Positions 7,263 to 10,239 of a stretch of DNA of 64,000 bases are shown piece by piece. Source of the DNA: an uncultured Solirubrobacterales bacterium (GTDB lineage: Bacteria; Actinomycetota; Thermoleophilia; Solirubrobacterales; Solirubrobacteraceae); NCBI GenBank assembly GCA_963760155.1, contig CAVXBL010000003.1, positions 58,663 through 122,662 on the forward strand. The letters run 5' to 3'. Position 1 is the first letter of the stretch. Every line of letters begins with the position of its first letter. The position numbers and the translations under genes were made by a program. The notes under the pieces are model-generated. The model saw only the letters and a program-made list of their open reading frames with translations. It was not told the DNA's origin and did not search any database.

Positions 7263-7661
7263 CTAGCCAAGGCTGGCGCTGTAGGCGTCGGCGTCCATCA
7301 GCCCGTCGCGCTCGGTGGGATCGGACATGCGCACCTTCACGAGCCAGCCCTCGCCGTAGGGGTCGTCGTTGATCTCGTGCGGTTTGTCGGCGAGCGCGTC
7401 GTTGACCTCGACGATCTCCCCCGACAGCGGAGCGACCACGTCGGAGACGGCCTTGACGGACTCGACCTCGGCGTAGGGCTCATCCTTGTTGAGGATCGTG
7501 CCGGGCGCGGGCGGGTCGAAGTACACGACCTCGCCGAGCGCGTCCTGCGCGTACCAGGTGATGCCGAGCACCGCCACGTCGGGATCGGCGGGGTCGATGC
7601 GGGCCCAGTCGTGTTCGGGGTGGTACAGCAGGTCGTCGGGGTAGCTCACCTCGGCCATCAC
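7263..7661 (-). CDS. gcvH: Glycine cleavage system H protein
   Basis: GIT.YAQDALGEVVY, EVESVKAVSDV (lipoyl-Lys) and NDDPYGEGWL. Confidence 0.97.
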   Translation of the reverse strand: MMAEVSYPDDLLYHPEHDWARIDPADPDVAVLGITWYAQDALGEVVYFDPPAPGTILNKDEPYAEVESVKAVSDVVAPLSGEIVEVNDALADKPHEINDDPYGEGWLVKVRMSDPTERDGLMDADAYSASLG

Positions 7662-8803
7662 TGGTCCTTTCGATAGAGCGGTTTGGACTTGACGGTCGCG
7701 GGGCGGATCTTGCCACGAACGTTGATTTCGATGGGCGTGCCCACGCCCGAGCGCTCGGCCGGGACGTACGCCATGCCGATGCCGACGCCCAGCGAGGGCG
7801 AGAGCGTGCCGCTCGTGACCTGTCCGCCGCCGACCACGGGGTTGCCCTGGCGGGCGATGCCGGGGCCGTCGAGCGTGAACGCGACGAGCCTCTCCGGCGG
7901 CCTGCCGGCAGAGCCCAGTGTGGGCGTCGCCGACGCGGAGGACACAGGGAAATCAGAGGACGCAAGCGCGGCCTGAAGGGCGGTCCGCGCGGCGCGGATC
8001 GCGTCCGCGCCGATGAAGCCGGTGTCCTCCCGGCAGCACCAGCCGAGGCCCGCTTCGATCGGATTACGGTCGAGCGACAGGTCGTTGCCGTACAGGTGAA
8101 AGCACGCCTCCAAGCGCAGCGTGTCCCGCGCAGCCAGCCCGGCCGGGGTGGCGCCACGGTGGCACAGCTCGTCCCACAGCGCGGGGGCGTGCTCGGGCGC
8201 GAGCAGCAGCTCGACGCCGTCCTCGCCGGTGTAGCCGGTGCCGCACACGAGCAGCTCGGCACCGGACAGGCGACGGGTAGCGGCGGTCATGCGGGCGGGT
8301 AGCGGCGCGTCGGAGATCGCCTGCACGATCTCGCGCGCGAGCGGACCCTGCACGGCAAGCATCGCGTAGTCGTCGATGCGGTCGTGAACTTCGACATCAA
8401 AGTCGCCGGTGTGCTGACAAAACCAGTTCAGATCACGCTCGTGGTTGGAGGCGTTGGTGACCGTCAGGTAGCGGTTGGGCTCCAGGCGGTAGGTGAACAG
8501 ATCATCGAGCACCCCACCGTCCTCGCGGCACAACACGCTGTACTGCGCGCCACCGACGGGAATGACCGACACGTCGTTTGACAGCAGGCGCTGCAGCAGT
8601 GCGAGCGCGCCGGGACCGGACGTCTCGATCTCGCCCATGTGCGACACGTCGAAGATGCCGCAGCGCTCGCGCACCGCCATGTGCTCGGTGCGCACCCCGT
8701 CGGGGTACTGCACCGGCATCTCCCACCCGGCGAAGTCAACAATCTTCGCGCCCGCCGCGACGTGGCGGTCGTATAGGACGGTGCGGCGAGGGGCGGACGA
8801 CAC
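7658..8803 (-). CDS. gcvT: Aminomethyltransferase (glycine cleavage T protein)
   Basis: FAGWEMPVQY, GIFDVSHMGE, TGYTGEDGVEL and ARDTLRLEA; GTG start inferred. Confidence 0.96.
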   Translation of the reverse strand: MSSAPRRTVLYDRHVAAGAKIVDFAGWEMPVQYPDGVRTEHMAVRERCGIFDVSHMGEIETSGPGALALLQRLLSNDVSVIPVGGAQYSVLCREDGGVLDDLFTYRLEPNRYLTVTNASNHERDLNWFCQHTGDFDVEVHDRIDDYAMLAVQGPLAREIVQAISDAPLPARMTAATRRLSGAELLVCGTGYTGEDGVELLLAPEHAPALWDELCHRGATPAGLAARDTLRLEACFHLYGNDLSLDRNPIEAGLGWCCREDTGFIGADAIRAARTALQAALASSDFPVSSASATPTLGSAGRPPERLVAFTLDGPGIARQGNPVVGGGQVTSGTLSPSLGVGIGMAYVPAERSGVGTPIEINVRGKIRPATVKSKPLYRKDQ

Positions 8804-8839
8804 GGCGCGCAGGTTATCGAGAGCGCACCGATTGCTGTC

Positions 8840-8934
8840 CGGGGACGTACATGTACGTCCCCGCGAGGAGCCGCATGCGGCTCCTCGTCCGATGGCGCAT
8901 GCGCCATCGGCACCCCCGCACATGTGCGGGGGTG
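8840..8934. repeat. Array of four abutting perfect palindromes, each centred on CATG
   Basis: CGGGGACGTACATGTACGTCCCCG (8840-8863), CGAGGAGCCGCATGCGGCTCCTCG (8864-8887), CCGATGGCGCATGCGCCATCGG (8889-8910), CACCCCCGCACATGTGCGGGGGTG (8911-8934). Confidence 0.97.
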
Positions 8935-8947
8935 AACTACATGGACG

Positions 8948-10039
8948 TCAACGCAAAAACGGCGGAACGTCGATGTCGTCGTCGGAGATCTCAAGCGACG
9001 AGCGCTGACGATCGTCGATGCGCGGGCCACGGTCGGGACGGCCCTCGCGGCCCTCGCGGCGCTTGCGCTCGCCGCGCACGGCACGACCGGGACGGTGGTC
9101 GAAGCCGGTGCCGATCACGGTCACGCGCACGTCGTCGGTCATCGACTCGTCGATCACCGCGCCGAAGATGATGTTGGCGTTGGGGTCGGCCGCGTTCTGG
9201 ATTATCTCCGCGGCGTCGTTGACCTCGAACAGGCCGAGGTCTTTGCCGCCGGTGATGTTCAGCAGGATGCCGGTGGCGCCGTCGACGGACTCTTCCAGCA
9301 GCGGGGAGGAGATCGCGGCGCGCGCGGCGTCGGCGCAGCGCGCCTCGCCGCCACCGGTGCCGATCCCCATTAGCGCGGAGCCGGCGTCGTGCATGATCGT
9401 GCGCACGTCGGCGAAGTCGAGGTTGATCAACCCGGGGATCGTGATCAGGTCGGTGATGCCCTGCACGCCCTGGCGCAGCACGTTGTCGGCCTCGCGGAAC
9501 GCGTCCAGCATCGAGGTACGCCGCTCGACCACGGCGAGCAACTTCTCGTTGGGGATCACGATCAGCGTGTCGACGACCTCGCGCAACCGCTCGATCCCCT
9601 CGATCGCCTGGCGTCCGCGCTGGGAGCCCTCGAAGTCAAACGGGCGCGTGACCACGCCGACGGTCAGCGCGCCGATCTCGTTCTTGGCGATCTCCGCGAT
9701 CACGGGGGCCGCGCCAGTGCCGGTACCGCCGCCCTCGCCGGCGGTCACGAACACCATGTCGGCGCCCTTCAGCGCCTCCTTGATGTCGTCGCGCGACTCC
9801 GCCGCCGCGGCGAACCCGACCTCGGGGTTAGCGCCAGCGCCGAGACCCTTGGTCGACTCGTGGCCGATGTTCAGCTTGATGTCGGCGTCGCACATCGCGA
9901 GCGCCTGCGCGTCCGTGTTGGCGGCGATGAACTCCACGCCGCGAAGCCCTGCGTCAACCATACGGCTGACCGCGTTGGTCCCGCCTCCGCCGACTCCCAC
10001 GACCTTGATGACCGCCAGGTAGCTGCCGCCGCTCTCCAT
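8948..10039 (-). CDS. ftsZ: Cell division protein FtsZ
   Basis: [22 protein letters not shown], tubulin motif [20 protein letters not shown] and C-terminal DIDVPPFLR. Confidence 0.99.
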
Positions 10040-10052
10040 TGATGTCCGAGCC

Positions 10053-10239
10053 TTCAAGTAGTTGTTTAAGGTTTGCCCCGTCACGCGGGACGAACCGTCA
10101 GAATACGCAAGTTATGCAGGGAACTTCGCCCTGTCAACGACAACCCTCAGTCTCGCAACAATCGTTGCAGAACGCGCAACCCTCGACTTGTGCTTGAGAA
10201 ATAGTTCTTTGCACCACCAAGCCTCAACTATAGGTTTAG
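10053..10239. promoter_or_regulatory. Three CTCAA-N7-TTGAG-like dyads upstream of ftsZ (candidate FtsR/MerR-type operators)
   Basis: Copies at 10053-10069, 10182-10198 (CTCGA-CTTGTGC-TTGAG) and 10223-10239 (CTCAA-CTATAGG-TTTAG). Confidence 0.5.

Follow-up and report, generated by a model that had tools for sequence, protein, structure and literature searches.

The ftsZ-gcvT locus of an uncultured Solirubrobacterales genome (G000, the source of the 64,000-nucleotide stretch of DNA analysed here and referred to as the window) raises the question of what a head-to-tail stack of perfect palindromes represents: a device serving the two neighbouring genes, or something of wider occurrence. A preliminary description had reported four abutting perfect CATG palindromes filling most of the gap between the two genes, and this proved exact. 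The palindrome search returned 100% complementarity for each of the four units, CATG starts at 8850, 8874, 8898 and 8921, an armless CATG is present at 8940, and the array takes up 95 of the 144 nt of the gap. Read on the minus strand, the order is the ftsZ stop codon, 13 nt, the array, 36 nt and the GTG start codon of gcvT (8803-8801). The coordinates of all features are collected in Table 1. DNA hairpin energies of the window units ranged from -10.5 to -12.6 kcal/mol each, and the predicted RNA fold of the entire array comprised four hairpins (-84.9 kcal/mol, z = -7.1).

Table 1. Features of the ftsZ-gcvT locus (window coordinates) and the two in-frame arrays found elsewhere in the genome (contig coordinates)
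Feature	Position	Strand	Remarks
Unit 1, 24-bp perfect palindrome CGGGGACGTA-CATG-TACGTCCCCG	8840-8863		ACATGT centre; ssDNA hairpin -11.1 kcal/mol
Unit 2, 24-bp perfect palindrome CGAGGAGCCG-CATG-CGGCTCCTCG	8864-8887		GCATGC centre; DNA hairpin -12.0 kcal/mol
Unit 3, 22-bp perfect palindrome CCGATGGCG-CATG-CGCCATCGG	8889-8910		preceded by 1-nt spacer t at 8888
Unit 4, 24-bp perfect palindrome CACCCCCGCA-CATG-TGCGGGGGTG	8911-8934		
AAC-type terminal flank aactacatggacg, ftsZ side	8935-8947	+	contains the armless fifth CATG (8940)
Second AAC-type flank, minus-strand reading GACAGCAATCGGTGCG	8824-8839	-	orthologue of L023 flank AACAGCAAATCGG
ftsZ	8948-10084	-	Pfam Tubulin and FtsZ_C domains; stop codon 13 nt from array
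gcvT (aminomethyltransferase)	7658-8803	-	Pfam GCV_T and GCV_T_C; start 36 nt from array
TAACCT hexamer, outside the repeat	8811-8816	-	7 nt upstream of the gcvT GTG
leuS array, 96 nt, in frame	C4:160115-160210		between catalytic and anticodon-binding domains (Pfam)
lysA array (LysA-type decarboxylase), 72 nt, in frame	C8:327117-327188		inside PLP barrel (Pfam)

One possible answer is a regulatory RNA specific to gcvT or ftsZ, acting either as a substitute for a riboswitch or, as the preliminary description had proposed, as a scaffold on which CAUG loops are offered to an RNA-binding protein. The position of the array in this spacer and its extremely stable predicted fold would suit such a role. 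The glycine riboswitch, which many Actinobacteria had been said to carry in this gap, was not detected: its covariance model (RF00504) gave no match upstream of gcvT (8000-10000, E-value threshold of 1), and the spacer of unit-free congeners is only ~20 nt long. No Rfam family reached its threshold over 8000-10000. Weak, sub-threshold likeness to two multi-hairpin RNAs, sbcD (30.5 bits, gathering score 40) and RsmW, counts in favour of a locus-specific RNA; the sbcD match, which spans window positions 8762-8913, is probably a mere likeness among multi-hairpin structures. A search for canonical terminators (GC-rich hairpin followed by a T/U-tract) gave no terminator-like sites in 8600-9100, the flanks of the array reading AACTAC and GACAGC.

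Comparison of the ftsZ-gcvT spacer between species for gain or loss of units, as had been recommended, revealed both empty and occupied sites. In G007, G009 and G011 the spacer is ~20 nt long and free of units; G004, G006, G013, G014 and G001 have a longer but likewise unit-free spacer, and 3-7 units are present in G000, G008, G002, G003 and G015, as well as in L023 and L054, two MAGs independently assembled from other samples. Unit content at this site differs completely between species. Judged from this comparison, neither ftsZ nor gcvT depends on the array, which is clearly dispensable. The locus-specific RNA is already contradicted by this distribution, since the site is empty in three congeners, the unit content is not kept between species, and the same element adjoins at least 40 unrelated genes (see below); with all Rfam families below threshold, we regard it as very improbable.

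Orthologous units could be recognised at the site, for example CACCCCCGCA / CACCCCTGCA / CGACCTCGCA, CCGATGGCG / CCGATGGGCG / CCGACGGGCG / CCGGAGGGCG, and AGACACGCCG / AGACATGCCG / TCACACGCCG. All differences between them, including a 1-nt indel, are mirrored in the opposite arm. Unit 3 and its L023 orthologue CCGATGGGCG are distinguished by the loss of one nucleotide per arm, while unit 4 is identical to an L054 unit and shows one mirrored change relative to an L023 unit. The order of units in G000 is reversed compared to L023, L054, G002 and G003, and in BLAST the arrays of L023 and L054 aligned to that of G000 in the orientation opposite to that of the flanking genes. The gcvT-side flank (RACAGCAAtcggtgcgctctcgataacctg) is unmoved while the unit block is inverted. 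Compared with these relatives, the unit block of G000 has been flipped in situ.

An artefact of assembly or consensus in the palindromic region was also considered, as palindromes can confuse some assemblers. This is very unlikely, because orthologous arrays with the same units are present in the independent MAGs L023 and L054. Dozens of MAGs, obtained in different studies and with different assemblers and including complete chromosomes, also carry arrays, and the leuS and lysA reading frames are intact across their arrays, which leaves the artefact with a practically negligible probability.

With regard to the expression of gcvT, a TAACCT or TAGCCT hexamer is located 7 nt before its start codon in every genus member examined (14 orthologous spacers aligned by eye; L146-L158). 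The genus-wide form is TAGCCT, which directly follows the ftsZ stop codon in the 'empty' spacers. This hexamer is likely to be the -10 element of a leaderless gcvT transcript; a strict sigma-70 scan gave no match for the putative -10. Because of its resemblance to the -10 of leaderless mRNAs, gcvT probably has its own promoter and does not depend on read-through from ftsZ. AACAGC was considered as the -35 element of a hybrid gcvT promoter and was rejected, since its spacing to the TAGCCT hexamer varies between species. In the ftsZ-gcvT spacer of two congeners, G015 (L150) and G001 (L154), there is ~0.8-1 kb of additional DNA containing small ORFs, which points to the spacer as a recurrent insertion site; in G015 this DNA adjoins a 3-unit array.

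The palindromes of the window belong to a family dispersed throughout the genome (3.74 Mb, 8 contigs, 65% G+C). The genome contains 118 perfect palindromes with a half-length of at least 12, compared to 0-2 in five Markov-1 simulated genomes, a number far above chance. At a half-length of at least 8, 369 perfect palindromes were counted, of which 113 are CATG-centred and 87 of these are exactly 24 bp long. About 110 units are organised into 28 arrays, each comprising 3-6 units spaced at a 24-bp pitch (range 23-26), and no isolated single or double units were found in the genome.

Scanning relatives for CATG-centred palindromes, another suggestion of the preliminary description, was similarly productive: a three-unit pattern was identified in 16 of the 25 sampled genus genomes (0-49 matches per genome), with no matches for the reversed-pattern control. 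In an order-wide sample the pattern was present in 25 of 301 genomes, from three genera within one family, with a single match elsewhere. A scan for a four-unit pattern in one genome per prokaryotic species yielded 120 loci. All of those with at least three distinct perfect units originated from soil MAGs of Solirubrobacterales/Solirubrobacteraceae (several studies and assemblers), and the matches in other taxa were chance matches or simple tandem repeats. None of the 94 pattern matches in IMG/VR contained three or more distinct perfect units. The family is thus lineage-restricted, occurring within a few genera of uncultured Solirubrobacterales. No description of it was found in the literature or in Rfam, and this repeat family of uncultured soil bacteria apparently has not been described so far.

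We propose, with a probability of roughly 0.65, that the array belongs to a non-autonomous mobile repeat built as a stack of hairpins, whose units are kept symmetric by hairpin-templated copying between arms, any effect on the 3' end of ftsZ being at most incidental. The four palindromes of the window would then be one inserted copy of this lineage-restricted element. The family is dispersed and, at orthologous sites, polymorphic between species; its termini are fixed, and a canonical form with three units exists. Each copy is a polar structure, consisting of a purine-rich flank, at least three abutting 24-bp YR-CATG-YR palindromes and an AAC-N-R-C flank.

This polarity is marked by the AAC-N-R-C flank, present on one side of 54 out of the 73 arrays examined (this genome plus fetched loci). 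AACAGC is its commonest variant, and AACTAC, AACTGC, AACCGC and AACAAC are also present. The opposite end is purine-rich, typically GGAA or GGGG. The canonical three-unit form, GGAA-[GACnnnGCCG][CCGGACGGTG][CCGRCCGGTR]-AACAGC, has about a dozen copies in the genome, and longer arrays (e.g., C7:3746 and C1:121908) resemble this form with additional units. The preliminary description had regarded the arms as unrelated and the array as the inverse of a CRISPR. Both statements hold inside a single array, but not between arrays: units at matching positions in different arrays are homologous, so that the arms are unrelated only within an array, and recurring unit types occupy fixed positions in a polar element.

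Among 314 units, 243 distinct arms were counted. The two bases preceding CATG are always a pyrimidine and then a purine, which results in an alternating 8-mer centre (CGCATGCG, CACATGTG, TGCATGCA or TACATGTA), and this YR-CATG-YR centre is ~95% conserved. When hairpins were sought without presupposing CATG, the centre was CATG in 312 of the 327 with perfect arms, a scan that decayed units with a mutated centre would escape; the rare variants were TATA, GATC, CATATG, CACG and CAAG. The conservation of the centre is partly an effect of ascertainment, because the units were found through their perfect arms or through CATG. Immediately adjoining CATG arrays at C8:559304-559327, L062 and L119 are perfect 24-bp palindromes centred on TATA (CG-TATA-CG); these keep the alternating pyrimidine-purine centre without CATG. 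Within the units, the 5' arm is rich in G and the 3' arm in C, with G exceeding C at six of the seven variable positions (314 units), and since the units are palindromes this skew exists on both strands.

The genes adjoining the arrays were identified by a rough GC3-based gene call. Of the 28 arrays, 26 are intergenic and nearly all are located no more than 80 nt from a stop codon. Altogether, 32 gene stops and 10 gene starts adjoin arrays, and the usual stop-to-array distance is 2-80 nt. The contexts are tandem or, often, convergent, with no clearly divergent promoter region among them. The neighbours comprise at least 40 unrelated genes, both housekeeping and regulatory. Orientation of the arrays relative to the upstream gene is mixed, and relative to replication it is unbiased, with splits of 7:5 and 3:1 (GC-skew origin of contig C8 near 1.45 Mb). 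At three loci (C2:321872, C8:1190080 and C8:747984) the upstream stop codon lies within 2 nt of the array end or overlaps it; two of these stops are TAG within the reverse complement of an AACTAC or CACTAC flank.

The remaining two arrays are inserted in frame into leuS and lysA. The leuS array consists of four units in G000 and G008 and of partly decayed remnants in G005 and G003, while the leuS genes of eight congeners have a unit-free loop of 60-81 nt at the same site. By the evidence of these congeners, the leuS array is an insertion. In both genes the frame reads CATG as CAT-G, which results in His/Ala/Pro-rich peptides (PHA, AHV, VHA). A 24-nt pitch preserves the frame, and RCATGY contains no stop codon in any frame. 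The in-frame stacks, together with the empty site in sister species, weaken the idea of a dedicated host device, whether the RNA scaffold or the structure-recognised cruciform array of the preliminary description.

The preference for gene ends admits two interpretations. Under the mobile-repeat reading, elements would survive chiefly right after stop codons and also in frame inside essential genes. As RNA, the window copy would give the ftsZ message four very stable hairpins at its 3' end, ahead of the gcvT promoter; these could damp read-through or protect the ftsZ 3' end, as a side effect and not as the reason for the existence of the array. Placement 2-80 nt after stops could instead mean selection for a function at transcript ends and not tolerance. 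The arrays would then be two-way modules selected by the host, whose RNA hairpins terminate transcription or block 3'-exonucleases for any gene that ends beside them, with perfect palindromy allowing action on both strands and selection for RNA pairing keeping the arms complementary. The excess of stops over starts, the frequent convergent contexts, the lack of clearly divergent ones and the predicted four-hairpin RNA fold all agree with this proposal, and intrinsic termination by grouped hairpins lacking a U-tract has been proposed (PMC8355165). It does not account for the in-frame arrays of leuS and lysA, the former kept since the divergence of G000 and G008, nor for the empty ftsZ-gcvT site of congeners, and the array has no T-tract.

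The manner in which the arms evolve bears on the same choice. When the leuS array of G000 is compared with its orthologue in G008, differences are found at 10 of 40 arm positions (0.25), all of them mirrored and none unmirrored. The divergence of leuS at four-fold degenerate sites is 0.45 for the same pair; the arms hence drift at roughly half the synonymous rate, and pairing is never lost. This drift occurs within a protein loop whose peptide changes too. In the set of 314 units, non-Watson-Crick pairs are found at 15 of 2826 stem positions 1-9, compared to 44 of 314 at the outermost pair; each position near the loop has 0-1 mismatches, position 9 has 5 and position 10 has 44. G-T pairs are not enriched among these mismatches.

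Selection for RNA or DNA pairing would be expected to slow double substitutions far below the neutral rate, whereas copying of one arm from the other should proceed at close to neutral speed. The observed arm rate therefore appears too fast for selection-driven double substitutions in a transcript-end module, in which G-U-type pairs would be expected to be better tolerated than other mismatches, which they are not, and in which a conserved loop sequence is not required. Taking both sides together, we consider host-selected transcript-end modules unlikely, although not trivially so.

According to the mobile-repeat reading, symmetry would be maintained at the DNA level, with one arm serving as the template for the other whenever a hairpin transiently forms (an intramolecular template switch). 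A mutation in a single arm would be either erased or mirrored, because the arms are copied from each other; the arms would drift almost neutrally, and the centre would be constrained by nucleating the hairpin or by being recognised by something. Template switching is known to homogenise the arms of inverted repeats and to invert the spacers between them (PMC8604942), and quasipalindrome template-switch mutation has been described in E. coli (PMC7202029). The mechanism predicts mirrored substitutions, mirrored indels and flips, as seen in the arrays, and it would also offer a route to the block flip at ftsZ-gcvT. It has been known as a hotspot mechanism at individual sites and not as a means of maintaining a whole family, which is what we infer for the arrays. 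The rise of mismatches toward the foot of the stem would fit a template switch requiring anchorage on the far side of the mismatch; a similar gradient would arise from thermodynamic fraying combined with selection. Provided that mismatches are both neutral and short-lived, their fraction of ~0.5% would correspond to a conversion rate roughly 400 times that of point mutation per pair. It should be kept in mind that arm-to-arm copying is deduced from substitution patterns in a few orthologous units, for which very strong selection for pairing would be the alternative.

The search for a mover gave no positive result. The preliminary description had suggested a stack of distinct REP-like units deposited by an HUH/RAYT-type enzyme. 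The first half of this suggestion stands, in that the arrays form a dispersed, polymorphic REP/BIME-like family, but the enzyme does not: Y1/RAYT (PF01797) gave no match in the array-bearing genomes examined (G000 and the array-rich G003, G007, G017, G020, G022 and G023), and TnpB is absent across the genus, the positive controls having matched in both searches. The multicopy genes of the genome comprise IS5/IS4, an IS481-like rve element, IS1380, two IS110 families, a group II intron and a two-gene element; none of the eight resident IS/intron families adjoins or carries units. The two-gene element is present in four copies (C8:1465820-1468131, C8:1925639-1928046, C8:2095493-2098134 and C3:138860-140718) and encodes a 524-aa protein without a Pfam match and a 247-aa protein resembling a fragment of a tyrosine recombinase. 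It was rejected as the mover, since among 41 relatives it was found only in G000 and in the array-free G010, without co-variation with the arrays. No terminal inverted repeats were seen, the array ends being asymmetric (GGAA versus AACAGC), and no target-site duplication was evident, although a very short one would escape notice without clean empty sites in very close strains. Mobility is thus argued from the pattern of distribution, because neither a mover nor terminal inverted repeats or duplications were found.

The arrays might alternatively be sites for a dedicated DNA enzyme or binding protein that reads YR-CATG-YR, as a duplex-bound dimer or at the tip of a hairpin or cruciform, and that makes, moves, flips or re-symmetrises the units; this would amount to a new mobile or recombination system. 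Such a protein would explain why an 8-nt alternating pyrimidine-purine palindromic centre stays constant while the arms drift, why the unit length is fixed at 24 bp and how the whole block at ftsZ-gcvT was flipped so precisely, and the patchy species distribution within genera would be expected if the arrays depended on a mobile partner. A candidate gene for it did not emerge from the searches (Y1/RAYT, TnpB, resident IS/intron families and the two-gene element), no arrays were found on viral contigs of IMG/VR, and outside the arrays CATG and RCATGY are neither avoided nor enriched. The observed/expected ratio of CATG in the genome is 0.96 and RCATGY is as frequent as YCATGR, so that restriction-site avoidance or enrichment, a separate candidate, left no signal and was dismissed. 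We consider the dedicated protein quite unlikely. That the arrays constitute a new class of element with actively re-symmetrised units, either through a dedicated YR-CATG-YR enzyme or as the first natural family maintained by arm conversion, without involvement of known transposase types, is a tentative proposal that we hold to be possible but doubtful.

To place the mobile repeat among known systems, its properties were compared with those of several classes of repeated DNA. CRISPRs share with the arrays a regular periodicity and a combination of constant and variable parts, a resemblance that is purely formal: in place of identical direct repeats with unique spacers, the units are self-complementary and abutting, there is no leader, and the variable parts are homologous between loci and not of foreign origin. 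MITEs (Correia/NEMIS, BOX, ERIC) are likewise small, non-autonomous and dispersed, form RNA hairpins and may be modular, BOX elements being built of A, B(n) and C modules. They have terminal inverted repeats and target-site duplications that match a resident IS, whereas the arrays have asymmetric ends that no IS shares and no evident duplication. A derivation from IS200/IS605 (PATE-type elements) finds no support either, with Y1 and TnpB absent from the genus and no IS copy carrying units.

The closest resemblance in genomic behaviour is to the REP/BIME/REPIN sequences of Enterobacteria, Pseudomonas and Stenotrophomonas (PMC3733652), which are also short, GC-rich, hairpin-forming, non-coding palindromes. 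As in the arrays, tens of copies are dispersed, clustered head to tail, mostly extragenic at the 3' ends of genes and polymorphic between relatives. REPs differ in that their palindromes are imperfect, share a conserved family sequence and carry a 5' GTAG/CGTC tag, and in co-occurring with a RAYT (Y1 HUH) gene (PMC3733652). The arms of the arrays are nearly free in sequence yet perfectly paired, with conservation confined to the 8-nt centre, and units of different sequence abut at a fixed 24-bp pitch within one array. No GTAG/CGTC tag is present on each unit, the sole conserved tag being AAC-N-R-C at one array end; its minority form AACTAC is the reverse complement of GTAGTT.

In-frame insertion links the arrays to the Rickettsia palindromic elements (RPE; PMC10969869), which insert in frame into coding and even essential genes. 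Both are tolerated as additional peptide loops with the reading frame kept open, as in leuS and lysA, and no transposase is known for either. The likeness is one of behaviour only: RPEs are single long hairpins of 100-150 bp with a conserved sequence in an intracellular alphaproteobacterium (PMC10969869), while the arrays, which occur in soil Actinomycetota, consist of stacked 24-bp units (72-144 bp) and are mostly intergenic, and a relation in sequence is not to be expected. Finally, the U-tract-less hairpin-cluster terminators of high-GC bacteria (PMC8355165) resemble the arrays in their adjacent stable hairpins after stop codons without a T-run, but lack perfect DNA palindromy, a conserved loop, dispersed homology and in-frame copies in essential genes.

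For the ftsZ-gcvT locus itself the outcome is deflationary, in that the array is a dispensable insert and not a riboswitch-like device. If the family is indeed mobile, its movement and flipping would have to be explained in the absence of terminal inverted repeats, of a detectable target duplication and of an HUH partner. On the practical side, the arrays are a recognisable marker for a clade of abundant uncultured soil Actinomycetota, and they give rise to errors of annotation, among them ORFs extended spuriously and unusual His/Ala/Pro-rich loops in LeuRS and LysA. If the proposed reading is correct, the family is a natural experiment in palindrome biology, in which hundreds of palindromes drift near-neutrally with virtually no loss of symmetry, including those within essential genes, where selection on protein or RNA would give no reason for it. 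Arm-to-arm copying across a hairpin, a mechanism otherwise known mainly from reporter assays, would then be measurable in evolution.
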